Origin: Bacillota bacterium
GTDB taxonomy: Bacteria > Planctomycetota > UBA8108 > UBA1146
NCBI GenBank assembly: GCA_003973385.1
Contig: QNYK01000062.1
Location: 81,763 to 145,762, forward strand
DNA length: 64,000 nt
Direction of reading: 5' to 3'
Shown here in pieces: positions 1 through 49,123 of this stretch (positions within the stretch are counted from its first letter, which is position 1; each line of letters begins with the position of its first letter). The position numbers were made by a program, and so were the translations under genes. The notes below the pieces were generated by a model that saw only the letters and a list, made by a program, of their open reading frames with translations, made no database searches and had not been told where the DNA came from.

Positions 1-128
1 TGTTGCGTGGAGAGACAGGAGCACCAGCAAGGTGGGGAGGAGAGCGTTGTTGATTTTCACTGCACTCCCTTCGTAGGTGCCATGCTGGTTTCGATTATAC
101 TCGCGGAAAATTGCCGTTTCCGTAGAGA

Positions 129-920
129 TCAGAGACAGTCAGGGATCACACAGGAGAGCGGGCCGGTGGGGGTGGTAGCCTCGCAGACGCCGGATAGGGC
201 ACCCGGGGAGCTCAGAAACAGGTAGTTGAGGCTGGTCACGACATCCCCGAGGTCGACGCTTTCATCATCATTGGCATCCGCTGCCTCGATACAGGGCACC
301 ACATCACCCCCCTGAAATAACCATAAAGTCAGGAAGATCGGGTCGGCGAGGTCGATGGTGCCATCGGAATTGGTATCGCCGCGCAGCATCCCCTCGACGA
401 TCTCGACGCTTCCGTCGATGAGGGTCGGTTCGATGACGATGCCCGTCAACCAGGTGACCATCACGGTCGAATGGGGAGGATTACCGACGTCGTCGGTGAT
501 GGTGATGGGGGACGGCCCCAGCGGCGTCTCGGAATCGACCTGGTAGACGATGCGGTGGACCTCCCACTGCTCGCCGATGGGTAGGTGTCCACTACCGGCC
601 TGAAAGTAGACGACGCCGAGGCTGAGCCCCTCGGGGAAGATGTCGACGCTGACGAAACAGGGATCGAGTTCGATGGTGATGTCGCCGGGCTCGACCTCAA
701 GTACCAGCAGATCGGTCGGGACGTTGCGGACCGACAGGGAGTAGCCGGAGATGTCGAGAGCATTGTCGAAGAGCAGCGGAACACGTACCGTTTCACCTCG
801 GAGGGCGCCGGTCGAGACCAACTCCATGACATGGTCCGGATCCTGGCCACCGAGGGTCGTCGGCAGCAGCAGCGAGCCGAGAAGCAGGAGGCTGTGAAGC
901 AGTGCAATGAGCCAGTGCAT
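129..920 (-). CDS. Secreted protein with an N-terminal cohesin-like module and a C-terminal type-I dockerin repeat pair plus Cys-containing tail
   Basis: Hydrophobic signal peptide (MHWLIALLHSLLLLGSLLLP). The N-terminal region has a cohesin-like pattern (GETVRVPLLFDNALDISGYSLSVRNVPTDLLVLEVEPGDI). The C-terminus has two dockerin repeats (RGDTNSDGTIDLADPIFLTLWLF; DANDDESVDLGDVVTSLNYLF) followed by C..C..C. ORF 129..920 from the track. Confidence 0.6.
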   Translation of the reverse strand: MHWLIALLHSLLLLGSLLLPTTLGGQDPDHVMELVSTGALRGETVRVPLLFDNALDISGYSLSVRNVPTDLLVLEVEPGDITIELDPCFVSVDIFPEGLSLGVVYFQAGSGHLPIGEQWEVHRIVYQVDSETPLGPSPITITDDVGNPPHSTVMVTWLTGIVIEPTLIDGSVEIVEGMLRGDTNSDGTIDLADPIFLTLWLFQGGDVVPCIEAADANDDESVDLGDVVTSLNYLFLSSPGALSGVCEATTPTGPLSCVIPDCL

Positions 921-1081
921 CGCGCCATCGCCTCCTTTCCGCCAACCATCGGGCAGGCTTCATTGTACAGACCATTGGCGACAAGTTTGAGGGCCGGGTG
1001 CCGAGTTCAACGACAGAACGACTGCTTCTCAACAGCGGCCCCGGGCCGTGATATCATGGACTGTGCCGAAAGCAGGCACCG

Positions 1082-1945
1082 ATGTTCAGGTACTCTCTGC
1101 TCGTACTACTGTCGACGATATTGCCGTTGCCGCTGTCGGCTCAGGGGGATTTTTACTTCATTGCAGACGATGCGACGGTCGAGTTCCATCCGACCAATGG
1201 GATCGCCGAACTCACCCTGGATCTCTCCATCGTCGAGGATCTGCAGCTACCTGGCTTTCCTACCGCTACGCAGACCGATACCGGCTTCGTGATGGCGTTC
1301 ACCGTCGAGACGGCCCTTCTCGATGTCGTCGAGGTCGTCCCGACCGGGCCATGGGCCACGATTTGCGGACCGACCTGGGATCTTTTCATCGTGACCACCG
1401 ATCCATCTGGTTGTCCCGGGGGAGTGTCGATTGGTGTCGTCTACGGCTTACTCTGCGATGTCTTCATCACCTTCGAGAACCCGACGCCGATGGTTGCAGT
1501 GACACTGGAGGCTAACCGAACCGTGCTCACTGGAACGACTCAGCCGGTCGCCACTCCGTTGACCTGGGGTAACGTGTGCACGAGCGAGAACCAGCTCTTT
1601 TCCGCCGGTGCGGCGATCTTCCCGGCGTTCGTCGACGGCGCCATCACCTTCGTCCCAGTGGATCCGGTACCGTTTCTTCGCGGTGACTGCAACGCAGATG
1701 GCAGCATCGACATCGACGACGCTATGAGGATCCTCTCCTGGCTCTTCCTCGGTACCTCGTCATTGCCTTGCCCGCTGGCGTGCGACCTCAACGGCGATGG
1801 AGCCGCACCCAACATCGCGGATGCTGTCTACCTGTTCACCTATCTCTTCAGTGCAGGAGCGTCGCCGGCGTTGCCCTTTCCCGATTGTGGGACCGTGGTG
1901 GGGACCACGCCTGCCGACTGTCCTGGTTTCGGGGTTTGCCCCTGA
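1082..1945 (+). CDS. Secreted protein with a C-terminal type-I dockerin pair and Cys tail, paralogous in architecture to the 129..920 product and divergently transcribed from it
   Basis: Signal peptide (MFRYSLLVLLSTILPLPLSAQG). Cohesin-like segment (GFVMAFTVETALLDVVEVVPTG). Dockerin repeats (RGDCNADGSIDIDDAMRILSWLF; DLNGDGAAPNIADAVYLFTYLF). Tail motif PFPDCG..C..C. Confidence 0.6.
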   Translation: MFRYSLLVLLSTILPLPLSAQGDFYFIADDATVEFHPTNGIAELTLDLSIVEDLQLPGFPTATQTDTGFVMAFTVETALLDVVEVVPTGPWATICGPTWDLFIVTTDPSGCPGGVSIGVVYGLLCDVFITFENPTPMVAVTLEANRTVLTGTTQPVATPLTWGNVCTSENQLFSAGAAIFPAFVDGAITFVPVDPVPFLRGDCNADGSIDIDDAMRILSWLFLGTSSLPCPLACDLNGDGAAPNIADAVYLFTYLFSAGASPALPFPDCGTVVGTTPADCPGFGVCP

Positions 1946-2089
1946 TGAGAAAGATGATGGCGGCGGCTCAGCGGCAGCCCCGAGTGGCCCATCGGTGCAT
2001 CCAGACGGAGCGGGCCTGTTCAAATTCTCCCATAATGTACCTTATCGGACCGCTACGTTTATCACCCCCTACGACGAGATGGTGCCGTT

Positions 2090-3556
2090 TCAGCGCTGTA
2101 AGGCGCCAGGATCGTGCTGCAAACCCCACTCTCGACAGCAACGCCTCGTCAGTTCCCGCGACTGCTCCCGGGAGACATCGATTCGATGCAACAGCTTCGC
2201 CTGGCACCTCGCCTGTTCGCTGAAGAAGTCCCATCCGTCGATCTTGTGGCGAGCGTCCAGCTGCTGGAGGAAGGCACTTCGGTAGCGTCGATACCCCAGT
2301 TCCATCAGCACTTGACCTGAAAACTGACTCGGATCCCAGCACAGCTCGTCGAACGGATTCCCGGCCGAGTCGGTGGCGTTGATCAGCACATCCGCCGCGG
2401 CGATGGTTGCGCCTTCATCAGCGGCTCTGTACTGCTCAGGAACCTGTGCAGGGTCCAGCGCCAGCATCTGAACCTTCATACGCCCGGAGAGTGCTGCGGC
2501 CACCACCTGTGCTGTGGCACCATTTCCCAGTATGACGGCTACCGATCCCGGTCTACTGATCGGCTCGAGCAGATTCGCAGCAGCGATGCCATCGGTACTG
2601 GTGCCGTACCAGCGCCCGGAGTCGTACCGGATCAGAGTATTCCACGACGGCATCATGGAAGCTTGCTGGTCGATCGGTTCAGCCACCTGCCGTGCCCATA
2701 TCTCGTAGGGAGAGGTGACGATCAGACCCTCGAACTGTAGCTGCGGGTCCGTCTGCAGAAAGAGGTCCGGCTTCAGCGTCGAATATTGAACCAGACGATC
2801 GGTACAACCTGAATCGTCCAGCAATCGATTATGCCAGTCAGGAGCTGGACTCTCCTGTACCTCCGCCCCGAGCGCCGCAAACCATCTTCGCTGCGAAACA
2901 CGATCGCAGGTACGATAACGCTGACGGATGTCTTCGATGGTCGGTACATTCAGGATCACATCGGTCTCATCGTCTGCTGGCCGCACGTAACCCCACGGCT
3001 GACCGTCGTCCAGCGCAACCAGTCGATCCACTACAGATGCAGCGCCTGAACAGAAACTGATCACCGGGAAATCAGGGAATCCTTTTGCCACTGCGATGGC
3101 CGCTCGGCTCTGAGCCAGATCATCCGATGAGAAGACGATCTTCGCTGCGGCGGCTCCGCGTCGCTGCGCCTGCATCACCAGTTGCTCGGGGGGGATCTCC
3201 AGCTGCTCCGTGCGATGGCTACTGAAGATCCAATCGAGGTCGGGAGGTGGCGGCGCATCAGTGAGTGGATCCACATCGAGAATCGCTCCCAGACTCCTGC
3301 AGATTTCATCCCTGCGCACACTTCGAATCGCATCCCCGAGTCCCCCTCTGTCGGTGACGATGACCGATAAATCGCCAGGTAGGGCTGTCATAGACCGATC
3401 TGGGCGCCAGAGATCGAGCCGAAACTCGACACCACCGATCCCTGGATCGAGTTGCTGTAGTCGGCCCAACGCCTGCCAGGACTCTCTTCTGGTGATCACC
3501 ATGACCCGGTCTGCAGGTAATTGCATGGATGACTCCAAAAGGTGACCGACAAGCAC
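2090..3556 (-). CDS. Bifunctional 3-dehydroquinate dehydratase (type I) / shikimate 5-dehydrogenase-like protein
   Basis: N-terminal DHQase-I-like motif (GVEFRLDLW). C-terminal Rossmann motif GSVAVILGNGATAQVVAAAL and LINATD resemble the AroE NADP-binding domain. The fusion architecture is inferred, not searched. Confidence 0.55.
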   Translation of the reverse strand: MLVGHLLESSMQLPADRVMVITRRESWQALGRLQQLDPGIGGVEFRLDLWRPDRSMTALPGDLSVIVTDRGGLGDAIRSVRRDEICRSLGAILDVDPLTDAPPPPDLDWIFSSHRTEQLEIPPEQLVMQAQRRGAAAAKIVFSSDDLAQSRAAIAVAKGFPDFPVISFCSGAASVVDRLVALDDGQPWGYVRPADDETDVILNVPTIEDIRQRYRTCDRVSQRRWFAALGAEVQESPAPDWHNRLLDDSGCTDRLVQYSTLKPDLFLQTDPQLQFEGLIVTSPYEIWARQVAEPIDQQASMMPSWNTLIRYDSGRWYGTSTDGIAAANLLEPISRPGSVAVILGNGATAQVVAAALSGRMKVQMLALDPAQVPEQYRAADEGATIAAADVLINATDSAGNPFDELCWDPSQFSGQVLMELGYRRYRSAFLQQLDARHKIDGWDFFSEQARCQAKLLHRIDVSREQSRELTRRCCREWGLQHDPGALQR

Positions 3557-10238: not shown

Positions 10239-11312
10239 TTGCTTTTCCGAATAGCACACAACTGGATCAATTCCGTGGTTGGTAGGTTCTCCACCGATCT
10301 TGGAATCGATCTGGGCACGGCGAATACTATCGTCTGTGTCAGGGGTAAAGGCATCGTGATCAGCGAGCCGTCGGTAGTTGCGGTGAAAGCTGGCACCAAC
10401 CAGGTTCTCCTCAATGGTCGAGCCGTCGGTAGTGTCGCGAAGGAAATGATGGGCAGAACCCCCGCTTCCATCGAGGCCATACGTCCCCTCAGAGACGGCG
10501 TGATCGCCGATTTCGAGATCACTGAAGCGATGTTGAAGTACTTCATCACCAAGGTCCAGAACCGATCTCGCTTCTTCAGCCCCCGGGTGGTCATCGCTGT
10601 TCCCAGCGGCATCACTGCAGTCGAGAAACGTGCGGTTTACAATTCTGCCGAACGGGCTGGAGCCAGAAAGGTCTACCTGGTCGAAGAGCCTCGCGCAGCA
10701 GGACTCGGTGCAGGACTTCCCATCGAGGAGCCCATCGCCAGCATGGTGGTCGATGTTGGCGGAGGAACCACCGAGATCGCGGTACTGTCGCTGGCAGATG
10801 TCGTGACCAGTGTCTCATTACGTGTCGCCGGAGACGAAATGGATGAAGCGATCATCAAGTACATGAAGGACACCTATAACATCCTGGTCGGCCCTCTCAC
10901 CGCAGAACAGATCAAGATCAAGATCGGTTCCGCATATCAACTCGAAGACGAACTCGAGATGGAGGTCAAGGGGCGCGATCTGATCGGAAACTTGCCGCGA
11001 AGTGCCCGGATCACGAGTGAAGAGATCAGAGAAGCACTTCAGCCACCCATCGAGACGATTGTCGAGGGCATCAAGGCGACGCTGGAGCAGACCGAGCCGG
11101 AGCTTTGTTCAGATCTGGTCGAGCGCGGCATCGTTCTCTGTGGCGGAGGAGTGCTGCTGAGAGGTCTCGATGAGTTGATCCGGAAGGCCACAGGATTGCC
11201 TGTTCGAGTGGCCGACGATCCCCTCACCTGTGTGGCTCGCGGGACTGCGATTTTCCTTGAAAATCTGGATCAATATTCTTCGGTCCTCGACTCCATCGAG
11301 GACGATTTCTAG
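10239..11312 (+). CDS. mreB: Rod shape-determining actin homologue MreB
   Basis: Near-colinear with E. coli MreB: [78 protein letters not shown]. Confidence 0.9.
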
Positions 11313-12543: not shown

Positions 12544-14679
12544 GTGAGGTGGGACCGCTTCGGTCCGGAGAGGTATAGGATGCAACGTCCGAGGATCCTG
12601 ACAGTGGCGGTATTGCTGATCCTGATGACGGTCGGGATCGGCTGGCGACTGGTTCAGTTGCAAGGCGTGGAGTGGCGCGATCATGCCCTTCGTGCCTCCA
12701 GTATTCACCGCTCCATCCGTTATTCGGCGGCTCCGCGGGGACAGATCGTGGATGCCTTCGGCGTTTCGCTGGCGAGGGACACCCCGGTGATTCGGGCCAC
12801 CTTCCTGCTTTCTGAACTGGAACCTGTTCGCTGGGTCGCTCGTCGCCTGGCTCCCATCCTTCGCGGCAGTGACCAGGCCTTCCCCTGGGATGAGATGCAA
12901 CTGTGGACATCGCTTCAGATGGCCAGAGCCCGGTTGCGGCCCCAGTTCGGATCCGGAACCGATCTCCCCCGGCATCCCTGGTTGAGCCGGCTGGATCTGG
13001 TTTCCGGAAGCAAGGTCGCGAGAGCAGTGGACAGCAGGCCAGAGGACTTTCCCGGCATCTCTGCGGTGAGATCCGGCGATGAATTCACGGTTTACTTCGA
13101 TCCTGATGTTCTCTTTGCAGGTGAGATTGCCATCCGTCGGATGGAGCAGGAACTGGCACTGGAACCCGGTCATCTGTGGGCGCGGGTCGAGGAGGCCTAT
13201 CAACGAGTTCAGGATTCCTCCATCGATATCCAGGAGCGAGAGTGGATCTTCAGACGCCAGCTTCACCCCCTTCATGAGAAGATCCCCGCACAACTGGTCG
13301 TCGAGATCAGTACCGACCCACAACGGTGGCCCGGAATACACCTGGAGGAAGCTCACGATCGTGAGCATCCCCAGGATCCGTTTCTGGGCCAGCTACTGGG
13401 ACACACGGGATTGCCCACCGCTGACATCGTCAAGGGTTGGAAATCGCGCCAGGAGCCCGTCATCGACCGACTGGTCCTGCGTGATCTACGGGTCTTCGAG
13501 GCGCTGCGCCCCTTCTCCCACCACAGTGCCGATCGAGTCGGTCGCAGTGGTCTGGAGTCGGTACTGGAAGATCGACTGAGCGGTATTCCAGGCGCCGAGG
13601 TGCGGATCCTGGATCACCTGCGACGAAAGGTGGGTGCGCCCCTGGATGTCGCTCAGCCGATCGCCGGCAAGGATGTCGTGCTGGCCCTGGATGTCGAGTT
13701 GAGCCGCTGGTGTGCGCAGACGTTGATGTCGAGGCAGGTCGAACTGGGAGCGGTCGTGGTTCTGGATGTCTCCGACGGCAGCGCGATCGGCTGGGCTTCG
13801 CTGCCACAGCAGGGCATGGAGGTCTATCGAGATCGAGATCTGTACCGGAGCAGATCCGAGTCTCCTGACGGTTGGTTCCATGACCGCGTCAGTGGCTGGG
13901 CCATCGATCCCGGATCGACATTCAAGACGGTCGTCGCACTGACTGCCTTGCAAGCTGGCGTCGTCGATGCCGAGGAAATCATCGTCTGTGAAGGTCTTCT
14001 CGATCCGCGGAGTCCCGGCCGCAATCGCTGTGGAAACCACCCGTATGGACTCGAACTGAACATGACCAGTGCACTTTCTCGGTCTTGCAATGTCTATTTC
14101 TACACGATGGGACAGAGACTGGGACTCGAGGCCATTGTCGACGGAGCGGTTCAACTGGGTCTGTGGAGCGGCAGCGGTTGTTCCATCCCATCGGAATCGG
14201 TCGGGATTCGCCCCACAACAAATCCAGTAGGGACAGCGATCGGTCGGGGCTTCACCACAACTCCTCTCCAGATGGCTCGAGTGGCGCTGTCGATCGCGAG
14301 CCGCGGGGAAACTCCCGGAATCCAGTTGATCGCTGGAGAATCAGGCACTGCGCTGCATCCTTCCTTCGATATCAGACATTATGAAACCGTGATCGATGGC
14401 ATGGTTTCAGCAGTCCGTGACAGAGGAGGTACTGCGTCTCGCAGCAGCTATCGCCTCTCCGGGTTCGATCTTGCAGTGAAGACGGGAACCGCCCAGATTC
14501 CCGGCACTCAATCCTACAATGCCTGGCTCATAGGATTTTCACCTGTGGTCGATCCACAGATTGCCTTTGCCATCTCCGCCCAGGGAGTTCCATTGCACGG
14601 TGGCGAGGCTTGCGCACCGATGCTCGCCGACATCCTCCAGTGGCTCGAACAACACCGTGGTCTGGAACTTCGTCGATGA
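12544..14679 (+). CDS. mrdA: Penicillin-binding protein 2 (elongasome transpeptidase)
   Basis: N-terminal TM. Transpeptidase motifs SxxK (GSTFKTV), SxN (SRSCN), KTG (KTGTA). Follows mreD. The start may be the downstream Met (MQRPRIL). Confidence 0.85.
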   Translation: MRWDRFGPERYRMQRPRILTVAVLLILMTVGIGWRLVQLQGVEWRDHALRASSIHRSIRYSAAPRGQIVDAFGVSLARDTPVIRATFLLSELEPVRWVARRLAPILRGSDQAFPWDEMQLWTSLQMARARLRPQFGSGTDLPRHPWLSRLDLVSGSKVARAVDSRPEDFPGISAVRSGDEFTVYFDPDVLFAGEIAIRRMEQELALEPGHLWARVEEAYQRVQDSSIDIQEREWIFRRQLHPLHEKIPAQLVVEISTDPQRWPGIHLEEAHDREHPQDPFLGQLLGHTGLPTADIVKGWKSRQEPVIDRLVLRDLRVFEALRPFSHHSADRVGRSGLESVLEDRLSGIPGAEVRILDHLRRKVGAPLDVAQPIAGKDVVLALDVELSRWCAQTLMSRQVELGAVVVLDVSDGSAIGWASLPQQGMEVYRDRDLYRSRSESPDGWFHDRVSGWAIDPGSTFKTVVALTALQAGVVDAEEIIVCEGLLDPRSPGRNRCGNHPYGLELNMTSALSRSCNVYFYTMGQRLGLEAIVDGAVQLGLWSGSGCSIPSESVGIRPTTNPVGTAIGRGFTTTPLQMARVALSIASRGETPGIQLIAGESGTALHPSFDIRHYETVIDGMVSAVRDRGGTASRSSYRLSGFDLAVKTGTAQIPGTQSYNAWLIGFSPVVDPQIAFAISAQGVPLHGGEACAPMLADILQWLEQHRGLELRR

Positions 14680-15884
14680 TCCCGGAGGTTGGAAACTGGT
14701 TTCGGGACTGGAGGTCTGGCTGGGCCGGCCCGGCAACCTTGCTCGTGCTGGCGAGTCTGTGGCTCTTGCTGATCGGCACCATCTTCGTCTACAGCGCGGC
14801 GGATGGTCCAGAGGGAGGCTTCCCGGGCGCCTACGCGGCAAGTCACATGAAAAAGATACTGGTGGGAATCATCGGTTTGCTGTTCGTCTCGATGATTCCA
14901 CCGAAACGAATCGAGAGTTTCTCGGTGCTCTTTTACGGCGGAACCCTGGTCCTGCTGATACTGCTGCTGGTGTGGAAAGGGTTCGAAGGAGGTGTCGTTC
15001 GCTGGATACGCATCGGAGGCTTTGGATTGCAGCCATCGGAACTGGCCAAGATCTCCACCGTGATGGTGATCGCAACTGCCCTGAGACCGGGCAAAAAACT
15101 GCAACGATGGAGCGATCTCACCAAACTGACCCTGGTGGCGGTCATTCCTTTTGTCCTGATCGCTTCTCAACCCGACCTGAGTACCGCGCTGATACTGGTT
15201 CCTACTGTAGCTGCGATGATCTGGGTTGCCGGAGTCGAATGGAAGAAGATGGCAACGCTCAGCATGATCTTGATTGTGCTCGCTGGTTTGTCATGGCCGA
15301 CGATGCCCAACTACCAGCAACAACGCATCATCTCATATCTTGGAATCGGTTCCGTGGATCAGGATTTTGCAGGTGGTTACCAGGTCACACAATCGATCAT
15401 CGCCATGGGAAGCGGTGGTCCGACGGGAAAGGGATTGCATCTGGGGAGCCACCACGATCTCGGATACTTGCCGGAAGATCATAATGATTTCATCTTCTCG
15501 GTGATCGGAGAGGAATGGGGATTGGTGGGGACCATCTCGGTGCTGATCGGGACACTCGTACTGGTCCTGACAATGCTGGGAGTCGCATGGAGTTGTCGCG
15601 ACCCCTTCGGGAGACTGGTCTCCGTCGGACTTGCAGCGCAGATCGGCTGCCAGGCTTCCATCAACCAGGCGGTGACGGTGGGTCTGGTCCCCGTCACCGG
15701 ACTACCACTCCCCCTCATCTCCTACGGCGGGACCTCGATCGTCACGACACTGCTGGCGATCGGAATCGTCATCTCCATCGCGCGCAAACCGATAGAGGTC
15801 GTGCATCCCGATGGGCTGCAAAAGGGCGTATCTCCCGTACAACACCGACCGATTCGAGCCCGGGTATCGAAGCAACAGGCCTGA
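14676..15884 (+). CDS. rodA: Peptidoglycan glycosyltransferase RodA (SEDS family)
   Basis: ATGA start/stop overlap with mrdA at 14676-14679. About 10 TM helices. SEDS-like loops (GGFGLQPSELAKI; SYGGTSIV). Confidence 0.85.
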   Translation: MIPEVGNWFRDWRSGWAGPATLLVLASLWLLLIGTIFVYSAADGPEGGFPGAYAASHMKKILVGIIGLLFVSMIPPKRIESFSVLFYGGTLVLLILLLVWKGFEGGVVRWIRIGGFGLQPSELAKISTVMVIATALRPGKKLQRWSDLTKLTLVAVIPFVLIASQPDLSTALILVPTVAAMIWVAGVEWKKMATLSMILIVLAGLSWPTMPNYQQQRIISYLGIGSVDQDFAGGYQVTQSIIAMGSGGPTGKGLHLGSHHDLGYLPEDHNDFIFSVIGEEWGLVGTISVLIGTLVLVLTMLGVAWSCRDPFGRLVSVGLAAQIGCQASINQAVTVGLVPVTGLPLPLISYGGTSIVTTLLAIGIVISIARKPIEVVHPDGLQKGVSPVQHRPIRARVSKQQA

Positions 15885-16865: not shown

Positions 16866-18185
16866 TCAGGGGCAGGCGTCAAACTGGTCACAGGTGAGGT
16901 CGTCCTCGGTGGGATCGATTCCACATTCGTCAAACGGCGCAGCGGGAGGCGCACCACCCGAGAACATGTAGCTCAGCAGCAAGACAGGATCTCCCAGAAC
17001 GATGCTGCCACTGTCATCGATGTCACCATTCTTCTCGCAAGCGGAGGCCGTTCCACCGCTGAACATGTAATCGAGCAGGTTCACCGGATCGCCCAGATTG
17101 AGAGTTCCGTTGCCGTCAAAATCACCTCGCGTGAACTGGACGCCAAAAACTCCCTCGAGAATCTCGATCCCGGTGCCCGATGTCTGAACAACACCGGAGG
17201 TCGAACCGATCGAAACCACGATGGCTGTCGGAGGTGAAGGAGATTGCGGGATCAAGGTATCGGTAAAATCAAGGGTGGTGATGCCGAGCGGCGCCGTGGC
17301 GACCGCCTGATAGTGGCTGATGATCAACTCCTGGCCATTTCCAGCGGGGAGTGTCGTCAGATCGGAGAGCGAGTAGAGACAACCGACGACCAGGCCATCT
17401 GCCCCCACCGGATCGATATCCATGGTCAAGAATGCCGGTCCGTTACCGCCGTTGAGAGCAGTGAGGGCGGCCCCGGCATCCGCAGCCAGCAGCGTCAATG
17501 CAGCGCCAGAATGGGCGAAACCGAAGGAGAAACCGTAGTTCTCAACCGGCGCATCCAGCAGGATCTGGACGTCAACGTCGCCACCCTGCTCGACACTACT
17601 CGCAGAGGGCGAGGCACTCAATTCGAAGGGCAGTATTCCACCGATCTCGATGAGCCCATCGATGGTGGTCGGTTCGATGGCGATACCACCAGGCGCCACT
17701 GCGAGATTTTCGGAATTGGAAGAATCTCCCGGAAAAACTTCGGTGCAGTATTCGATGGCTGCAAAGGTATCGTCCGGGCCCAGCAACTGCGCTTGCATCA
17801 CGATCGCTTCATGGTCAGTGTCGATCGGCAAATCATTGAGTCCAACAAAGTTGATCACGACACCCTGTCTGACTCCGAATCCGGGAAACAGGCTCAGTTC
17901 AGCGAAATCAGCGGGTCCCCCAGCATTGGATGTGTTGGGTGCAGATCCATTGACCGCCTCGACCACTTCCATGCTGGAATCGTAACAGATGGCGATGGAC
18001 CAGCCCGCAAGAACCCCGCCGTTGTTATCGATCAACGATCGGGTGGTGACAACGGCGCCGGAAGGCCCGGAACTGCTGGTATCAAAGTGAAAGATGTAAT
18101 CAGGGTTCTGTGCTGCGATCGGGCTGGAGATGACCATCAGCAACAGAAGGCCGATGAGGTGCAACGGGATACGAAGGTGAACCAT
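16866..18185 (-). CDS. Secreted protein with cohesin-like N-terminal region(s) and a C-terminal type-I dockerin pair plus Cys tail
   Basis: Signal peptide MVHLRIPLHLIGLLLLMVISSPIAAQ (start chosen at this Met). Dockerin repeats RGDFDGNGTLNLGDPVNLLDYMF and KNGDIDDSGSIVLGDPVLLLSYMF. Tail PFDECG..C..C. Gly/Ala-rich beta-like middle region. Confidence 0.65.
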   Translation of the reverse strand: MVHLRIPLHLIGLLLLMVISSPIAAQNPDYIFHFDTSSSGPSGAVVTTRSLIDNNGGVLAGWSIAICYDSSMEVVEAVNGSAPNTSNAGGPADFAELSLFPGFGVRQGVVINFVGLNDLPIDTDHEAIVMQAQLLGPDDTFAAIEYCTEVFPGDSSNSENLAVAPGGIAIEPTTIDGLIEIGGILPFELSASPSASSVEQGGDVDVQILLDAPVENYGFSFGFAHSGAALTLLAADAGAALTALNGGNGPAFLTMDIDPVGADGLVVGCLYSLSDLTTLPAGNGQELIISHYQAVATAPLGITTLDFTDTLIPQSPSPPTAIVVSIGSTSGVVQTSGTGIEILEGVFGVQFTRGDFDGNGTLNLGDPVNLLDYMFSGGTASACEKNGDIDDSGSIVLGDPVLLLSYMFSGGAPPAAPFDECGIDPTEDDLTCDQFDACP

Positions 18186-18586
18186 GAATTGACTCCTGTT
18201 CGGGCGAGCACGTTGGAGGCGGTGATCGAACCGTAGTTCGAGCCCGAGGATGGCTCCGGGACCGATTATAGGCCCGTTCGGTGGCAATCTACCCGGTTTC
18301 GGGAATCACCGCACCCTCGCACTGACCACCGTTCCAGCGCAGAATCATGGTCAGATCGACCTATTGTAGCACTCGAACCCACTTTTCGGCACCCCTCCCC
18401 TGGCACCAGAAATGTCAATTGCTGCCGAATGTCCAGATCAGGGACACCCGGGCCGCATTCGGTACCGAGGTCGAGACCCGGACGCTGCCGCACCCCCACC
18501 ACAACCTCGATCCCCTGCGGGCACGGCGTTTGCCTCCCCTCCACCAGCACTGCGGTACTCCCGCGGCAGACGCAGAAAGGACCGAG

Positions 18587-19288
18587 ATGACTCTTGAAGC
18601 CAGCGACAGCCCCCTGCCGCTTCCAGTCAGTTCCGTTCATGAACTGCAAGATCTTCAGAAGAAGGGCATCAGCAAGATGCGGGTCGTCTCGGCGAGCCAG
18701 TTACGGAACTCGGCCAGGATTGCGCTCGCGCAGGCCCTCAACGAGATGCTCGGAGAGATTCAGATCTGCGGCGAGGAACGCCAGTTGATCCTGGATCGTG
18801 CGCAGAGCCACCTGATGCCGTCCAACCCCGGCACCGATTCGATTCCAGTGGAGACCCCTGAAGTGGCACCCGCATCGAAGCCAGTGCCCCGGGCAGATGA
18901 AACGAAAGAAGCGCAGCAGTCACAGCCTCCAGCATCTGCCTCCAAGGGCCCACTCGGAGAGAGAGAAAAGGCGCTGCTCGTCCAGCTCTCGCGGCTCATC
19001 GCACGCGATTGGAGAACGGAACTGGCGACGGTGAGGGATTCACAACGCACCCAGGTCGAAAGGCTCGAGATGAGGATTGAAGAATTGACGCTTGCTCTGC
19101 ACGCGACCGATCACGCACTCGCCGGCGAGGACAAGAAATGCACCGCCGAACTGGAAGTGAAATCCCCGTTTGATCACAAGAAATCAGAACTCCTGGACCA
19201 ATTATTCCAGGCAAATGTGGCTCTCCGCTCCCTTGCGGATGAAACAGCACCTGGAGAAACAGGATCCCAGGACCGAGAAGGAAGGTAG
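18587..19288 (+). CDS. Hypothetical partner protein of the actin-like ATPase (helical N-domain, Pro/Glu/Ala/Ser-rich linker, C-terminal coiled coil)
   Basis: The stop is 3 nt before the start of the downstream MamK-like gene. Linker PVETPEVAPASKPVPRADETKEAQQSQPPASASKGP. C-terminal heptad-like RTQVERLEMRIEELTLALHA. Start chosen at the Met at 18587; an upstream in-frame ORF extension exists. Confidence 0.5.
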   Translation: MTLEASDSPLPLPVSSVHELQDLQKKGISKMRVVSASQLRNSARIALAQALNEMLGEIQICGEERQLILDRAQSHLMPSNPGTDSIPVETPEVAPASKPVPRADETKEAQQSQPPASASKGPLGEREKALLVQLSRLIARDWRTELATVRDSQRTQVERLEMRIEELTLALHATDHALAGEDKKCTAELEVKSPFDHKKSELLDQLFQANVALRSLADETAPGETGSQDREGR

Positions 19289-19290
19289 TC

Positions 19291-20388
19291 ATGACCCCGG
19301 AAAACAGGACTCAGCACAACAGTAACAAGGATGTGGCCGTGCCGTGGGCCAGCAACAAGACCAGTATCTTGCATGTCGGAATAGATCTGGGGACGAGCCG
19401 AAGCGCGATTGCCAGCTCTAACGGCGCTCGTGAAGTGATGGCGAGCCTGGTCGGTTGGCCCAAGGATTCGGTATCCGCCAGGGTACTGGGTGCCAGCATC
19501 CTTGTCGGCGACGCAGTGCTGGAAAATCGACTGGCACTCCATACCTGTTACCCACTGAATGCTGGGAATCTAGCCTTCACCGAGTTGAGCGGCCCCGAAA
19601 AGGACGCCTCGAGAAAGGCGGGAGTGACGCTGCTGGATGCGTTGCGCAAGGCCAGCAATCCGAGGCCAGATCAAGCGGTCTGTGCCGTGATCGGCGCCCC
19701 GGCTGAGGCCACCCGCGAGAACAAGCAGGCGATCGTGGACCTGGCCAGAGACGCCGGAATCGATGGAGTGATGGTGGTTTCCGAGCCCTTTGCCGTCGCC
19801 TATGCCGTCAATGCTCTGGAGAACGCCATCGTCATCGACATCGGAGCGGGCACCATCGACCTGTGTCGGATGGCTGGTAGTCTTCCCGGTGCAGAGGATC
19901 AGGTGACGGTGTTCCGCGCCGGCAACTATGTCGATCAAAGGCTGGCCGAATTGATTCGCGAGGCCCATCCCCAGGTTCAATTCACATCGAACATGATCAA
20001 GCTGGCCAAGGAGCGTTTCAGCAGCGTGGTGGATACCGAGAATCGCGCGCTGGTGACATTTCCGGTGGCCGGTTGCCCGACCAAGATCGACATCACTCCT
20101 CAACTACGAAGCGCTGTCGAGGAACTGGTGCCGTGGATCACACAAGGGATTCAGTCGCTGGTCGCCACCTTCGACCCGGAATTCCAGCATCGGATCCGCA
20201 ACAAGATCATCGTCAGCGGCGGAGGCTCGCAGGTCTTTGGCCTCCAGGAAGCCCTTGAAAAGGGGCTGGAAGCACTCGGCGGAGGCCGCGTGACGATCGT
20301 CGATGATCCGGTTTACGCAGGCGCTCAAGGTGCACTGAAGCTGGCCCAGGAGATGCCAGAAGAGTACTGGAGCCAGATGCGAAGGTGA
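19291..20388 (+). CDS. MamK-family actin-like ATPase (bacterial actin homologue distinct from MreB)
   Basis: Shares MamK-like motifs throughout: VGIDLGTSRSAIA (phosphate 1), VGWPKD, VCAVIGAPAEA, VVSEPFAVAY, IVIDIGAGTIDLC (phosphate 2), GSLPGAEDQVTVFRAGNYVDQRL, IIVSGGGSQVFGLQEAL (adenosine), DPVYAGAQGALKLAQEMPEEYW. Compared from memory with Magnetospirillum MamK. No database search was run. Confidence 0.8.
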   Translation: MTPENRTQHNSNKDVAVPWASNKTSILHVGIDLGTSRSAIASSNGAREVMASLVGWPKDSVSARVLGASILVGDAVLENRLALHTCYPLNAGNLAFTELSGPEKDASRKAGVTLLDALRKASNPRPDQAVCAVIGAPAEATRENKQAIVDLARDAGIDGVMVVSEPFAVAYAVNALENAIVIDIGAGTIDLCRMAGSLPGAEDQVTVFRAGNYVDQRLAELIREAHPQVQFTSNMIKLAKERFSSVVDTENRALVTFPVAGCPTKIDITPQLRSAVEELVPWITQGIQSLVATFDPEFQHRIRNKIIVSGGGSQVFGLQEALEKGLEALGGGRVTIVDDPVYAGAQGALKLAQEMPEEYWSQMRR

Positions 20389-26137: not shown

Positions 26138-27931
26138 ATGTCCTGCAGCCCCGTCCCCACCGCTCTAACCCCTCTCGGCGTGGATGGGTTCACTCCAGAC
26201 CCGCGGATCTCGCTGCGGATCACCTGTCTCTGCCTGGCCCTGGCGGGCTGTGATGCAGGATCCTCGACTCCGCAGGTGCTGGTCGATATCACCGATGACA
26301 CCGGAATCCACTTCTGGCATGACAACGGCATGACCGGGGAACTCTATTTCTGTGAGACGGTCGGACCAGGGTCAGCATTCCTGGATTTCGATGGTGACGG
26401 TGATCTGGATATCTTTCTCCTCCAGGGGAGGTTGCTGGGCGACACCAAGCAGGAATCGGACCGGATCTTCACGCCCCCGGCTGGGCAGCCGACGGGGGCC
26501 AGATTGTATCGGAACGAAGGGGTCAATGATCTGGGTATCCCGCAGTTCATCGATGTGACCACATCGTCCAGGATCGATGCGAGTGGGTACGGGATGGGAT
26601 GTGCCGTGGGAGACATCGAGGGCGATGGTGACCCCGATCTTTACCTGACACAATTCGGCGAAGATCAGTTGTGGGTCAATCAAGGCGACGGCACTTTCAT
26701 CGACGGAACCGAGCAAGCAGGGCTAGGCGATGGTCGCTGGACTACCAGTGCCATCTTCATCGACATCGATGCCGATGGAGATGAAGATCTGTATGTTTGT
26801 TCCTACATCGATTTCACCCTGAAAAATCACAAACCCTGTTTCTCCGAGAGCAGTGCAGTCGAATACTGTGGGCCCAGTTCCTATACACCGCTGCCCGATC
26901 GCATTTACCGTAACCGCGGAGATGGCACCTTTGAGGAGATGACCTCTGCCAGTGGAATAGGAGCACAACCGGGCGCTGGTCTCGGTGTCGTATGTTCAGA
27001 TCTCGATGCAGATGGAAGGCTGGACTTCTATGTCGCCAACGATGGCATGGCCAATCGACTGTGGCGACAGGTGGCACCGTTTGTATTCGAGGATACAGCA
27101 CTGCTGGCCGGGTGCGCACTGCTGGCCGGGTGCGCGTACAACAGGGATGGTCGCCCGGAGGCTTCGATGGGAGCAGACCTCGCTGATTACGATGGAGATG
27201 GAGACGAAGATATCTTCGTCACTCACCTGACCGGAGAAACGAACACGCTCTACACCAACAATGGCAAGGGCATATTCGATGATGAGTCCTCACGATCGGG
27301 ACTCGGTGTTCCCAGTCGTCGTTGGACTGGATTCGGGACCGCGTGGTTTGATCTCGAAAATGATGGTGATCTCGATCTATTCGTCACAAACGGCGCAGTG
27401 AAACGGATGGAAGAACGAGTCGCTGCGGGCGACCCCTACCCTCTCGATCAACCCGATCAACTCTTCATCAATCGAGACGGAAAACACTTCGAGGAGATCG
27501 CTGCAGCCAGGGCCACGGTGCTTCAAGAGGAATCTGTGGGTCGAGGTGCTGCATTTGGAGACATCGACAACGATGGAGACATTGATATTCTCGTCAGTAA
27601 TAACTGCGGGAATGTTCGCCTTCTCCAGAACAGGGTCGGGGCCAGCAACTCATGGATCGGCCTCGATATCCGCAATGATGGAAACCGGGTCGAGACAGGA
27701 GTCCGGTGTGAAATCCGGCAGGGCGATCAGTCGGTCATATATAGACGATCTCGACGAGGAGGATCCTACCTGTGCAGTAACGATCCACGTATCTCGGTGG
27801 GTCTGGGGACGCGCACGGAGAATTGCGAAGTGACGATATTCTGGTTCGACGGTTTGATCGAAGTCTTCGAGGATCTTTCACTGCGCCGATATCACACGCT
27901 GCGCCATGGCGAAGGGATTCCAAGGCGATGA
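26138..27931 (+). CDS. CRTAC1/ASPIC-UnbV family protein with FG-GAP/VCBS-type repeats
   Basis: Repeated D-x-D-x-D-G-D-x-D calcium-binding beta-propeller repeats (DFDGDGDLDIFL, DIEGDGDPDLYL, DIDADGDEDLYV, DLDADGRLDFYV, DYDGDGDEDIFV, DLENDGDLDLFV, DIDNDGDIDILV). UnbV/ASPIC-like C-terminus (GGSYLCSNDPRISVGLG). Lipoprotein-like N-terminus. Confidence 0.8.
   Translation: MSCSPVPTALTPLGVDGFTPDPRISLRITCLCLALAGCDAGSSTPQVLVDITDDTGIHFWHDNGMTGELYFCETVGPGSAFLDFDGDGDLDIFLLQGRLLGDTKQESDRIFTPPAGQPTGARLYRNEGVNDLGIPQFIDVTTSSRIDASGYGMGCAVGDIEGDGDPDLYLTQFGEDQLWVNQGDGTFIDGTEQAGLGDGRWTTSAIFIDIDADGDEDLYVCSYIDFTLKNHKPCFSESSAVEYCGPSSYTPLPDRIYRNRGDGTFEEMTSASGIGAQPGAGLGVVCSDLDADGRLDFYVANDGMANRLWRQVAPFVFEDTALLAGCALLAGCAYNRDGRPEASMGADLADYDGDGDEDIFVTHLTGETNTLYTNNGKGIFDDESSRSGLGVPSRRWTGFGTAWFDLENDGDLDLFVTNGAVKRMEERVAAGDPYPLDQPDQLFINRDGKHFEEIAAARATVLQEESVGRGAAFGDIDNDGDIDILVSNNCGNVRLLQNRVGASNSWIGLDIRNDGNRVETGVRCEIRQGDQSVIYRRSRRGGSYLCSNDPRISVGLGTRTENCEVTIFWFDGLIEVFEDLSLRRYHTLRHGEGIPRR
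27101..27136. repeat. 18-bp perfect tandem duplication inside the CRTAC1-family gene (ACTGCTGGCCGGGTGCGC x2; encodes ALLAGCALLAGC)
   Basis: Read directly at ~27101-27136. Confidence 0.7.
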
Positions 27932-30863: not shown

Positions 30864-31025
30864 GATGAGACTCCTTCAGGGCGTCAGGTTACAGGTCAAT
30901 GGTGCCGACTCCCAACCAATGGATGGGTAGACGGAGACGATACAAGGTTTACAATAGACACTCCGTAAACTTTGTTAGTCAGGAGAGGTCCCTGCCCCCT
31001 CCTGTCATTTTCGCACTTCCCACTC

Positions 31026-33872
31026 ATGAATTCGCGGAGGTTTTCGATGCGTTCGAAACTCATTCCGACCTTCATCCTGCTACTTTGCTGCACTCAGATC
31101 CAGGCTCAGTCTCAGACGCCAGCCTCGGTGTCACAGACCTCAGGAGCCCTGGCACCTCCAGCCGGATCCACCTCTGCCCCGATGATCCCAGGAGATGTCA
31201 TCCAGTTTGTAGGACATGGCGGCAGCAATCCACTGGGAATTTGCATAGATGAACCGCAACGGCGGCTCTATGTCTGCGATCTCTTCAGCGGAACCACGCA
31301 CCTCTACAACATCGACGACCTGTCAGCGGGAGTGGTATCCACCATTTCCAATCCTGCGGGTAGCGTTTCCACCAATGGGATTGCCATCTCGGGTCAGCAC
31401 ATCTACTGGGTGGTTCCAGGAGCGTCCCCGAATCTGTGGAGAACTCTCAAGGATGGCACCAATCCGCAAGTTCACGGAAACCTGACACTACCTGGAGGGG
31501 GAATCGTTGGTGACATCTGCATCACGTCAGATCAAACGATGTGGGCAGTGGATGTCACCAATGATCAGTACAGCAGCCATCTCCTCAATGGGGAATTTTC
31601 AGGATCGATCATCGGACATCCAGCAGGTAGCGGCGCTGGCAACAGCATCGCTTATCGCAGCGACTGCAACCTATTGCTGGTTCCACACAATGTTCCCGGC
31701 GCCACCATCGTCACTGCCATCAGCACGATGGATTCGTCTGGAGTGCTCAGAGCCGAGACGGACATCTCATCGCTGGGAGGATTCATCAACGGGATTGCGC
31801 ATGTTTCCAGCGGCTCTCAGGGAGTCCCATCGGTGTTTCTCGTCGACGCCTCCATGAATCGTATCTATGAACTGGAATCTCAACCTGCGTGCCCTGCACC
31901 GCAACTCAGTGGGCAACATGAGTTCGAGATCTGCGGCCCGACCGGACTGAACGACATCAATGACACCTCCCTGCTGATGGAGATGGTGCACTTTGACCAC
32001 TACGGAACAGTGCGAGATGTTGACATCTACCTGGAGATGGAACATGACTTTGCTGCTGACATCACCGTCAACATCACGAGCCCTGCAGGAACCACGGTGA
32101 GCTTGCTCTCAGAAACACAGTACAGCGGAAGTTTGTGGGGACTGGTCTTTGACACCGACGGCCAGGGGCTTTATCCGGACGGACCCGGTTCACTGGATGA
32201 TTTCGACGGTCAGGAGATCCACGGAAACTGGATCTTGACGATCATCGATCCTTACCCCGGCTCCGATGGCACACTCTCCAACTGGTGCGTCAGAATCGAT
32301 GAGGAAACGAAACGGTTGCACAGAGGGGTATTTCCGGTGCTTCATGCCACGGGTATCCAGAATCAGGCGATCAGCCAATCGATTCCGATCCAGGACTCGG
32401 TCACCATCACGGAGGGATACAGTGCCATCGATCTGGATGTGGGCATTGACCTGATCCACGGCTTTCTTTCAGACCTGGCCATCCGAATCGCCAGCCCACT
32501 GGGGACAGAGGTGACCTTGCTGGGCCTGGGACCGGCAACTGCGGGTGAGATTCACACCACATTCGATCAACAGGGCATCGAGTATGCCCCCGACAGTTTA
32601 CCGACAGGGCAACAGATGGCACCTCAAGGGCCCGGGGCCCTGTCCGACTTCCTGGGGGAAGCAGTCCAGGGTGACTGGACGCTGCTCGTAGATGACAGCG
32701 TGACGACTGACGATGGAGTACTCCAGAACTGGAGTCTGGATCTACTGGAACCAGTGCTGCTCAACTCATCTGGGAACCCCCTGGAGTTCAACATTGAAGT
32801 TCAGGAAAACATCGCAGTAGCCGATATCGAGGTGGATCTTCAACTGATGCATCCAGCGATCGACCAGATTCATGTCACATTGACATCGCCCCAGGGAACC
32901 GTGGCGATTCTGGAGAGCTTCGGAGGGTATGCCGGGACAGCGATCCACTGCATTTACGACACCAGCGGAATCGCCTACGACGAGGCACTCGTCGCAGAAG
33001 GAATTCGCATGCAACCTGCAGGTTCGCTCGAAGCATTCATCGGTGAATCGATGCAAGGCATCTGGACGCTGAAAGTTCAGGACAATCTATCGAGCAGCCA
33101 GGGTTGGCTGACCGATCTTGCCCTGATCATCCATGGTGATGATGCGCCATGTTTGGCCCCCACCGTGACCGCAATCAGTTCCACTCTGGCCACCGATATC
33201 CCGTTCCCGATTGCATTCTCTGGAACACTCGGTGGCACCGCGGCAGACTTTCTGTACTGGGACTTCGGCGATGGCACCGGTTCTGCTGACCTGAATACAG
33301 TTCACCTGTACTTGGTCCCAGGAACCTATGTCGTACGCTTGACCGTGGAAAACCCGTGCGGGACAGCATTTTCTCAGCTTTCCGTGATCGTCTGTGAAGC
33401 ACCGGTTGCGAATTTCGATTTGCTCGGCTGGATCGGCATCGCACCCTATTGCGCCGAATTTCAAAACCTTTCCACCGGAACCATAGACCATCTCATGTGG
33501 GATTTTGGTGATGGATCCACCGTTCAGAACAACGGGGATGCCGCCTTCAATTACGACGCCCCAGGTTACTACAGCGTGACGCTGGACGCGTACGGCACCT
33601 GCGGCACCACATCGACGATGACCAGAAACAACGAGATCAAGGTGCTGTCGATGGGAGATGTCAATGCTGATGGCGCGCTGGACACATCTGATCCGATCAC
33701 ATTGGTTCTCTACCTCTTCGGAGCCGGAGGAGTCCTACCCTGTCCAAAATCTGGAGACGTCAATGGAGACCAATTGTTGAACCTCGGCGATGTGGTCCAC
33801 CAGTTGATGTTCTTGTTCGGCGGTGGCTCGGACTCGGCCCCGGTGAACAATTGCGGATCGTGTGATATCTGA
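31026..33872 (+). CDS. Large secreted multidomain protein: N-terminal propeller-like region, three proprotein-convertase P-domain-like modules, two PKD domains, C-terminal type-I dockerin pair and Cys tail
   Basis: Signal peptide MNSRRFSMRSKLIPTFILLLCCTQIQAQ. Three ~110-aa repeats resembling the PC P-domain (..DVDIYLEMEHDFAADITVNITSPAGTTVSLL..GNWILTIID..; ..DLAIRIASPLGTEVTLL..GDWTLLVDD..; ..IHVTLTSPQGTVAILE..GIWTLKVQD..). PKD motifs (WDFGDGTGS..YVVRLTVEN; WDFGDGST..YSVTLDAYG). Dockerin repeats GDVNADGALDTSDPITLVLYLF and GDVNGDQLLNLGDVVHQLMFLF. Tail NNCGSCDI. Confidence 0.75.
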   Translation: MNSRRFSMRSKLIPTFILLLCCTQIQAQSQTPASVSQTSGALAPPAGSTSAPMIPGDVIQFVGHGGSNPLGICIDEPQRRLYVCDLFSGTTHLYNIDDLSAGVVSTISNPAGSVSTNGIAISGQHIYWVVPGASPNLWRTLKDGTNPQVHGNLTLPGGGIVGDICITSDQTMWAVDVTNDQYSSHLLNGEFSGSIIGHPAGSGAGNSIAYRSDCNLLLVPHNVPGATIVTAISTMDSSGVLRAETDISSLGGFINGIAHVSSGSQGVPSVFLVDASMNRIYELESQPACPAPQLSGQHEFEICGPTGLNDINDTSLLMEMVHFDHYGTVRDVDIYLEMEHDFAADITVNITSPAGTTVSLLSETQYSGSLWGLVFDTDGQGLYPDGPGSLDDFDGQEIHGNWILTIIDPYPGSDGTLSNWCVRIDEETKRLHRGVFPVLHATGIQNQAISQSIPIQDSVTITEGYSAIDLDVGIDLIHGFLSDLAIRIASPLGTEVTLLGLGPATAGEIHTTFDQQGIEYAPDSLPTGQQMAPQGPGALSDFLGEAVQGDWTLLVDDSVTTDDGVLQNWSLDLLEPVLLNSSGNPLEFNIEVQENIAVADIEVDLQLMHPAIDQIHVTLTSPQGTVAILESFGGYAGTAIHCIYDTSGIAYDEALVAEGIRMQPAGSLEAFIGESMQGIWTLKVQDNLSSSQGWLTDLALIIHGDDAPCLAPTVTAISSTLATDIPFPIAFSGTLGGTAADFLYWDFGDGTGSADLNTVHLYLVPGTYVVRLTVENPCGTAFSQLSVIVCEAPVANFDLLGWIGIAPYCAEFQNLSTGTIDHLMWDFGDGSTVQNNGDAAFNYDAPGYYSVTLDAYGTCGTTSTMTRNNEIKVLSMGDVNADGALDTSDPITLVLYLFGAGGVLPCPKSGDVNGDQLLNLGDVVHQLMFLFGGGSDSAPVNNCGSCDI

Positions 33873-49037: not shown

Positions 49038-49112
49038 TGACCCCAAGGGGATTCGAACCCCTGTTCTCAGGATGAAAACCTGATGTCCTGGACCTGACTA
49101 GACGATGGGGCC
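49038..49112 (-). tRNA. tRNA-Glu (anticodon UUC)
   Basis: Hand-folded cloverleaf on the minus strand: acceptor GGCCCCA/TGGGGTC, anticodon loop TTTTCAT (UUC), T-arm GGGGTTCGAATCCCC. CCA is not encoded. Confidence 0.8.
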
Positions 49113-49123
49113 TCGATTTCAAG

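Follow-up and report, generated by a model that had tools for sequence, protein, structure and literature searches.

What role might two small secreted proteins play when each of them carries both a cohesin and a dockerin? Cohesin and dockerin form the best-studied modular plug-and-socket of bacteria, one that is widely used in synthetic biology and is known almost entirely from anaerobic cellulolytic Firmicutes. The question is raised by the left end of a 64,000-nucleotide stretch of contig QNYK01000062.1 (the window), whose host, judged from the Planctomycetota metagenome-assembled genomes (MAGs) that hold homologues of the two proteins, is an uncultured marine or hydrothermal Planctomycetota bacterium. 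Two genes, designated P1 (129..920, reverse strand, 263 amino acids) and P2 (1082..1945, forward strand, 287 amino acids), each encode a signal peptide, a cohesin domain and a C-terminal dockerin extended by a cysteine-containing tail, of a four-cysteine type in P1 and a six-cysteine type in P2. Profile searches and structure models suggest that the two proteins are probably secreted single-cohesin, single-dockerin connector subunits of a non-cellulosomal cohesin-dockerin assembly system, and that they may function like monovalent adaptor scaffoldins. The locus is ordinary in kind, belonging to the non-cellulosomal cohesin-dockerin proteins of Planctomycetota, and its new features, apparently undescribed, are a dockerin that seems to be stapled by disulfides and an obligate fusion of cohesin with dockerin. 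In the literature searched, whose coverage was incomplete, no description was found of the stapled tail, of the rule that a cohesin always occurs with a dockerin, or of proteins built from alternating modules.

P1 and P2 are paralogues, as an earlier note on this DNA had recognized, and BLASTP aligns them over their full length with 27% identity (E = 1e-13). The note also had them facing each other across a 160-bp shared promoter. The genes are indeed divergent, but they are transcribed apart rather than towards each other, with adjacent 5' ends and start codons separated by 161 bp (921..1081), within which both promoters presumably lie. A promoter and terminator scan of positions 1..2200 of the window returned no terminators and a single weak sigma-70-like site (1029..1057, forward strand), a yield no better than that of shuffled sequence, so that the shared promoter is a purely positional notion. 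Both proteins begin with hydrophobic leaders, which we read by eye, from the hydrophobic core and end motif, as predicted signal peptides of the general secretory (Sec) pathway, comprising residues 1-25 of P1 (MHWLIALLHSLLLLGSLLLPTTLGG before Q; 846..920, reverse strand) and residues 1-21 of P2 (ending in PLPLSAQ before G; 1082..1144, forward strand). The P1 leader ends in GGQ and the P2 leader in SAQ, the leaders of the other two dockerin-bearing proteins of the window end in AQ, and all leaders in an alignment of P1 homologues end in AQ before DPDH. In the AlphaFold2 models, P1 has an N-terminal helix at residues 2-26, with low confidence at residues 20-26, and P2 a helix at residues 2-12 followed by a low-confidence stretch at residues 13-21. 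A lipoprotein assignment for P1 was rejected, as a cysteine close to the cleavage site occurs only in some homologues, is a glycine in P1 and is not conserved. Among 5.8 billion sequences, P1 and P2 have 23 and 13 matching homologues, respectively, and those that bear a name all come from Planctomycetota MAGs; an NCBIfam search of both proteins gave no meaningful match. Several metagenomes and MAGs contain family members with 50-78% identity, whose calcium ligands and cysteines are invariant.

The cohesin-like beta region that had been noticed in each protein is borne out by the predicted folds. The AlphaFold2 models of P1 (predicted local distance difference test, pLDDT, 82.7; predicted template modelling score, pTM, 0.69) and P2 (pLDDT 78.7, pTM 0.65) both contain a domain that can be superimposed on solved cohesins, whose fold is a nine-stranded beta-sandwich of jelly-roll topology. 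When compared with the PDB by Foldseek, the P1 model retrieves type I cohesins at the top (E from 6e-11 to 1e-9, target template modelling (TM) score up to 0.87, root-mean-square deviation 2.1-3.1), and the P2 model retrieves the type I cohesin 1g1k_A (E = 4e-10, target TM 0.76). For both models the lists consist almost entirely of cohesins, which fill the top 40 or more matches and include the non-cellulosomal cohesins of Archaeoglobus fulgidus and Clostridium perfringens (2xdh, 2jh2, 2w1n, 2vo8). At the sequence level, a profile built from 15 P1 and P2 family members matches CipA cohesins of Clostridium thermocellum (E = 4.9e-10 and 2.8e-7). According to the models, each protein has a cohesin-fold domain, located at residues 27-176 of P1 (393..842, reverse strand) and residues 22-195 of P2 (1145..1666, forward strand). 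The P2 domain possesses four extra cysteines (C95, C111, C125 and C166), three of which (C95, C111 and C166) are invariant across four relatives of the P2 subfamily, and these may form additional disulfides within the cohesin itself; the P1 cohesin has one cysteine, which is not conserved.

The C-terminal dockerin pairs are likewise confirmed. Type I dockerins (PF00404) consist of two segments of about 22 residues, each with a 12-residue EF-hand-like calcium loop whose ligands occupy positions 1, 3, 5, 9 and 12 and which is followed by a helix, and both P1 and P2 have this organization with canonical ligand positions in all loops. In P1, the core (residues 178-238; 207..389, reverse strand) comprises the intact loops DTNSDGTIDLAD (D182-D193) and DANDDESVDLGD (D215-D226), linked through a segment containing C210 and followed in the model by helices at residues 192-203 and 224-235. 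The P2 core (residues 198-259; 1673..1858, forward strand; cysteines C203, C230 and C234) comprises the equally intact loops DCNADGSIDIDD (D202-D213) and DLNGDGAAPNIAD (D235-D247), the second with a one-residue insertion, and the model again places a helix after each. Solved dockerins are matched by the 15-sequence family profile (E = 1.5e-6), by a profile of four P2-type sequences (2y3n_B, E = 5e-6) and by a profile of the extended module described below (E = 7e-8), and 18 of 30 such modules match Pfam Dockerin_1, the best with E = 4.7e-7. The Pfam check proposed in the earlier note has a divided outcome, in that single sequences fall below threshold while the family profile finds solved cohesins and dockerins at significant levels. 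In a six-frame scan of the window, dockerin-type calcium loops were detected in exactly four proteins, namely P1, P2, and the products of a 473-residue and a 966-residue open reading frame (ORF).

Each dockerin core continues into a cysteine tail, found at residues 239-263 of P1 (C246, C257 and C262; 132..206, reverse strand) and residues 260-287 of P2 (C269, C280 and C286; 1859..1942, forward strand). As the note had observed, the tail is also present on the other two dockerin proteins of the window, although in the 966-residue protein it is shortened (NNCGSCDI). Conservation throughout the P1/P2 family extends to four cysteines, of which the linker between the repeats contributes one (C210 in P1), while the others fall within the last 20 or so residues. 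P2 and its relatives have an additional pair, carried by a GDCNADG motif in loop 1 and an ACD motif directly before loop 2. An 89-position profile covering dockerin plus tail, termed Doc*, was searched against 1.84 billion cluster representatives and obtained 46,482 matches at E<=1e-3, 26,129 at E<=1e-10 and 648 at E<=1e-30. Since calibration gave 64-84 bits for the family core alone (compared with 35 bits for a clostridial dockerin), a score that already corresponds to E<=1e-10, the large counts describe the dockerin type and not necessarily tails, and the use of the 26,129 matches as a count of tails was discarded as invalid. Modules that retain both the linker cysteine and the main tail cysteine (columns 33 and 82) make up 241 of 246 full instances among the top database matches and 192 of 207 unique ones from the loci of related genomes (93-98% over both sets), so conservation of the tail extends far beyond the four proteins of the window.

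The reading of the tail as a conserved sorting motif, which the note had offered for checking, does not hold. A C-terminal sorting signal of the PEP-CTERM, MYXO-CTERM or type IX secretion system C-terminal domain kind was rejected because the module is found repeated, N-terminal and internal, and has neither a hydrophobic helix nor a basic tail. Among the top 150 proteins, 2-12 copies per protein were seen, also in N-terminal or internal positions, and among 307 full-length instances 91 begin within the first 60 residues and 110 lie at the extreme C-terminus. Doc* also departs from the classical clostridial dockerin, a form of about 60-70 residues that lacks cysteines and disulfides. Known dockerin structures and Pfam Dockerin_1 align only to positions 1-58/62 of the profile, and for positions 60-89 the libraries searched contain nothing comparable, either curated or solved. 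Judged by its distribution among sequences, the tail is an integral and phylum-typical part of an extended dockerin domain.

The cysteines of Doc* co-occur in three specific pairs, from which we infer disulfide staples. In addition to the nearly universal pair in columns 33 and 82, columns 71 and 88 are strongly associated (odds ratio 100, p = 2.5e-40 in the database set; odds ratio 49, p = 7e-24 in the loci set), as are columns 6 and 37 (odds ratio 215, p = 1.7e-21; odds ratio 61, p = 8e-27), all of these being figures that ignore, and are inflated by, shared ancestry; the non-partner columns 6 and 71 show no association (p = 0.3, loci set). Such a pattern would correspond to three nested disulfides, comprising a universal one between linker and tail (C210-C257 in P1, C230-C280 in P2), an optional one within the tail (C246-C262 and C269-C286) and an optional one between loops 1 and 2 (C203-C234 in P2). 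A related stabilization of dockerin ends is known from Ruminococcus flavefaciens ScaA, where an N-terminal Trp stacks on a C-terminal Pro in an intramolecular clasp (Slutzki et al. 2013, PMC3821032). Doc* recalls this Trp/Pro contact in that its position 1 is a conserved aromatic residue and its last residues are often C-P. The lock in Doc* would be a covalent counterpart of this clasp, with two to three disulfides tying a 30-residue extension to the linker between the repeats.

Beyond the individual proteins, the genomic context indicates that P1 and P2 do not form a self-contained pair. A contig 99.8% identical to positions 1..1945 of the window (L087) encodes, directly downstream of P1 and on the same strand, a 440-residue protein (L087:3098-4420) in which a local hidden Markov model (HMM) search finds two cohesin domains (1.3e-28 and 4e-14) and a Doc* (5e-30). 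The first 20 codons of this gene (VKINNALLPTLLVLLSLHAT, signal peptide) occupy positions 1..60 of the window on the reverse strand, the remainder lying across its left edge. The P1/P2 pair is thus two thirds of a three-gene cluster of cohesin-Doc* (Coh-Doc*) proteins. In a scan of GTDB species representatives, 382 relatives were found. Nearly all come from Planctomycetota MAGs, the samples being marine, hydrothermal, groundwater or similar in origin, and the closest is in SZUA-1234 (75% identity). The surroundings of such genes were surveyed in 881 kb of loci from 87 sources in related Planctomycetota, which contain 223 ORFs with Doc* and 104 with cohesin. Both modules are present in 101 of the 104 cohesin ORFs, and the remaining three are cut by locus ends, meaning that every complete cohesin ORF carries Doc*. 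This strengthens the idea, already raised in the note, of self- or hetero-assembly, which on such sequence grounds is plausible for P1 and P2. The architectures comprise Doc* only (118), Coh-Doc* (65), Coh-Coh-Doc* (29), Doc*-Coh-Doc* (7) and Doc*-Doc* (4).

Genes of this family are clustered, with 4-7 Coh/Doc* genes per 12-kb locus. Adjacent pairs are tandem in 86 cases, divergent in 15 and convergent in 12, and a divergent pair as a general, functionally required layout was rejected, given the prevalence of tandem arrays and a distant P1 orthologue (50% identity) that has no P2-like neighbour. A five-gene array on one strand recurs in six loci (L021, L023, L028, L029, L038 and L064) from several Planctomycetota MAGs, and it resembles a conserved operon for graded connector proteins. 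Its order is a Doc*-bearing cargo gene (430-740 residues), two Coh-Coh-Doc* genes (about 660 and 460 residues), a Coh-(Coh)-Doc* gene (about 480 residues) and a Coh-Doc* gene (about 300 residues). A further architecture was encountered among the top Doc* proteins, many of which consist of a signal peptide, a Doc*, about 170 residues and another Doc*, sometimes repeated. In about 100 of them, in a list that was ranked by summed score and is enriched in multi-module proteins, the spacer of about 170 residues is a cohesin of the P1/P2 type (HMM, down to 1e-30), and a family of alternating Doc*/cohesin proteins therefore exists. Within matches P0053-P0200, Doc*-Coh-Doc* proteins of about 360 residues and Doc*-Coh-Doc*-Coh-Doc* proteins of about 620-660 residues have no other recognizable domain (e.g., P0180, P0078, P0074, P0054 and P0062), and pure tandem repeats of 4-7 Doc* copies are found as well.

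The proteins that bear Doc* without cohesin provide candidates for cargo. Pfam domains on 80 such ORFs include P_proprotein (7), PKD (6), FG-GAP (5), LTD (3), Laminin_G_3 (3), Calx-beta (3) and HYR (2), together with single cases of CotH, Peptidase_C25, GH25, TSP3_bac and others. Cellulases and hemicellulases were absent from these 80 ORFs, which include just one GH25, and in related genomes Doc* ends many non-enzymatic or adhesin-like proteins and a few hydrolytic ones. The earlier description of the scaffolds as unrelated to cellulosomes is thus right with respect to cargo, although by descent the modules are genuine homologues of those in cellulosomes. Within the window, the candidate cargo is the 966-residue ORF (30972..33872, forward strand), which, according to Pfam searches and the loop scan, contains P-domains of the proprotein-convertase type (three copies) and PKD domains (two copies) and ends in a Doc*. 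A gene for an FG-GAP/ASPIC-UnbV protein of 597 residues (26138-27931, forward strand) lies about 3 kb upstream, with one TPR gene and one HEAT-repeat gene in between; this protein has no dockerin loops, although FG-GAP is common on Doc* cargo in relatives.

Several known systems resemble this arrangement. Archaeoglobus fulgidus AF2375 and the glycosidase/toxin complexes of Clostridium perfringens reportedly contain both modules and form enzyme complexes. They have cohesins and dockerins outside cellulosomes, sometimes on the same polypeptide, and their cohesins match P1 and P2 structurally. However, they involve single or few proteins per genome, mostly enzymes, whereas the present proteins constitute a large, clustered paralogous family, mostly non-catalytic in domain content, with a dockerin variant of its own. 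By architecture, the closest counterparts are monovalent adaptor scaffoldins such as Ruminococcus flavefaciens ScaC, which are also small and secreted with one cohesin and one C-terminal dockerin; an ScaC-type cohesin (5lxv) is among the structural matches of P1. Natural scaffoldins of this type serve to attach additional proteins with dockerins to a larger assembly of cohesins and dockerins (PMC4959524). P1 and P2 share the defining composition of one cohesin plus one dockerin on a secreted protein, and they differ in host (Gram-negative-type Planctomycetota rather than a Firmicute), in cargo without cellulases or carbohydrate-binding modules, in a dockerin with an extra, probably disulfide-stapled tail, and in that no primary or anchoring scaffoldin was found in the surveyed loci. 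The hallmarks of a cellulosome, namely carbohydrate-active enzymes against plant cell walls as cargo, a primary scaffoldin and an SLH or sortase anchor, are not seen here, and the combined cohesin and dockerin form accounts for virtually all cohesin proteins, as opposed to a minority in cellulosomes.

By organism and cargo, the closest counterpart is the planctosome, a hypothetical, untested system proposed for freshwater Nemodlikiaceae, in which a signal-peptide protein with dockerin and cohesin serves as an adaptor (Andrei et al. 2019, ISME J, PMC6461901). Proprotein-convertase P-domains, LTD, TSP3 and HYR are carried by its partners, without a link to cellulose degradation, and the model has a cohesin-bearing LTD anchor with M12B/M14 peptidases as cargo (PMC6461901). 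The system described here likewise consists of secreted non-cellulolytic cohesin/dockerin proteins in a Planctomycetota host. It likewise combines the adaptor architecture with partner domains, the P-domains being on the 30972..33872 protein and LTD, HYR and TSP3_bac on Doc* proteins of relatives. A cohesin-bearing LTD anchor and M12B/M14 peptidases were not among the 80 cargo ORFs, a small sample in which the only peptidase is one Peptidase_C25. The described planctosome hosts are freshwater organisms, whereas the present MAGs are marine or hydrothermal, and the accessible part of the paper (PMC6461901) does not mention a cysteine-stapled tail, a rule that cohesin always accompanies dockerin, or alternating Doc/Coh proteins. 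That one small polypeptide should carry both a cohesin and a dockerin has precedents in the adaptor scaffoldins and in the adaptor of the hypothetical planctosome.

Taken as connectors, P1 and P2 would act as follows. After Sec export, Doc* would fold around two Ca2+ ions and be locked by disulfides from linker to tail and within the tail, with a third between both calcium loops in P2. Each connector would then offer one socket, its cohesin, and one plug, its Doc*, and the cohesin of one subunit would bind the Doc* of another protein in trans. In this way, extracellular or cell-surface complexes would arise in which P1, P2 and the neighbouring Coh-Coh-Doc* proteins are linked to one another and to cargo that carries a Doc*, for example the P-domain/PKD protein. 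A more ambitious version, which we put forward only tentatively and with low confidence, would be a distinct Planctomycetota-wide mode of self-assembly in which each receptor is also a ligand, alternating-module proteins polymerize head to tail, and adhesin-like cargo is hung on a protein-based surface coat or matrix, as opposed to a scaffold for enzymes, with P1, P2 and the 440-residue protein as co-expressed blocks of complementary specificities.

Several observations weigh against the connector reading. In single-sequence Pfam searches, P1 scores 15.2 bits for Cohesin (PF00963), under the cut-off of 24.1, and P2 gives no Cohesin match; the Dockerin_1 scores of single sequences, 19.5 bits (P2) and 19.2 bits, are also slightly below the cut-off of 22.9. 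Furthermore, the P2-only profile of four sequences misses cohesins by sequence, and the cohesin call for P2 consequently depends on fold and on homology to P1. The inflated co-occurrence statistics, together with the low confidence of the tails in both AlphaFold2 models (pLDDT 43-67), keep the disulfide pairing at the level of inference. The surveyed loci were picked for a P1-like gene, which biases the architecture counts towards Coh-Doc, and no cohesin-only, SLH or membrane-anchored scaffoldin was found in them, leaving the attachment of the assembly to the cell unexplained. Finally, the four genes of the window sit amid housekeeping genes (aroD/E-like, rho, gltX, mreB, PBP2, rodA, tRNA synthetases and beta-oxidation genes) and not in a dedicated operon with cargo.

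The constant companionship of cohesin and Doc*, in surveyed loci that yielded no cohesin-only anchor, could also mean that the Coh-Doc*, Coh-Coh-Doc* and Doc*-Coh-Doc* proteins are themselves the product rather than adaptors for cargo, each cohesin taking up the Doc* of the following subunit to give chains or branched lattices such as a surface coat, holdfast or biofilm matrix. The large numbers of proteins made solely of alternating Doc* and cohesin modules, and the several paralogues encoded side by side, are in keeping with such a self-polymerizing matrix. However, 118 of 226 Doc* ORFs, about half, are cargo-like and carry other domains, which fits display better than a pure matrix, and the own dockerin of a cellulosomal scaffoldin usually does not bind its own cohesins. 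On balance, a pure matrix is unlikely. A different possibility is that Doc* anchors or secretes proteins by binding something other than a cohesin, for example a cell-surface glycan, the outer membrane or part of a secretion apparatus, with the cohesin fold serving as a general ligand-binding beta-sandwich that does not pair with dockerin. Of 122 ORFs with Doc* modules only, 107 have the module at their very C-terminal end, as is typical of C-terminal sorting domains, the surveyed loci lack an anchoring scaffoldin, and cohesin-like folds are known in non-dockerin contexts. Yet classical enzyme dockerins are equally C-terminal, Doc* also occurs right after signal peptides, internally and in tandem, and has no hydrophobic helix or basic tail. 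Its coupling with cohesin on one polypeptide (101 of 104) is moreover hard to explain without an interaction between them, making a pure anchor quite improbable.

The interaction might instead take place within a single chain, with the dockerin bound to its own cohesin in a closed, stabilized monomer, for example a calcium-binding or adhesive surface protein. The linker between cohesin and Doc* is so short that the two domains must pack together, and the pTM values of the two-domain models (0.69 and 0.65) suggest a defined relative orientation. The same linker, with about 2-5 residues, would nevertheless probably not let the dockerin extend as far as the canonical binding face, and the multi-module alternating proteins and the gene clustering would be left without explanation, so that intramolecular pairing appears very unlikely. 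Chance ORFs or a mis-called motif, which the sub-threshold single-sequence Pfam scores and the lack of an NCBIfam match might suggest, are refuted by conserved full-length homologues, significant profile and Foldseek matches and conserved synteny, and have a negligible probability.

Other parts of the window and of related loci complete the picture of the neighbourhood. The remaining dockerin protein is a Coh-Coh-Doc* paralogue encoded by the 473-residue ORF (16866..18287, reverse strand; probable start Met at 18185), with cohesin domains at residues 84-215 and 232-353, tail cysteines C455, C466 and C472, and linker cysteine C417. Adjoining it on the forward strand (18347-20388) are a 313-residue ORF without a Pfam match and a divergent actin-like protein of 365 residues (MreB_Mbl, 1.5e-21, with weak Salactin/Volactin matches). 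The canonical mreB is separate (10239-11312), upstream of PBP2 (12544-14679) and rodA (14610-15884). In four loci from hydrothermal-vent metagenomes (L003-L006) and in SZUA-1234 (L007), two tandem P1-like genes are divergent from the P2 orthologue (75% identity), and the same aroD/E-like gene occurs near the P1/P2 orthologues. In L003 (6950-8365, forward strand), L004, L006 and L007, the P2 orthologue is followed by a gene for a 471-residue C-type-lectin-Coh-Doc* protein; the window has no such gene, and its aroD/E-like gene comes directly after P2. The only Rfam matches in the window are three tRNA genes (49038-49196 and 63356-63427, reverse strand), far from the P1/P2 locus.

The locus exemplifies, in compact form, an uncharacterized Planctomycetota branch of the cohesin-dockerin family that is very large, with tens of thousands of cluster representatives. 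This branch is marked by an apparently disulfide-stabilized dockerin, suited to oxic seawater, by cohesins that always occur with a dockerin and by non-cellulolytic cargo. With about 240-265 residues, mature P1 and P2 are small and constitute convenient test objects. If the proposed binding holds true, it would offer new orthogonal, oxidation-tolerant pairs for protein engineering, give the planctosome idea its first experimental footing, and help to explain how the cell surface is organized in these bacteria.

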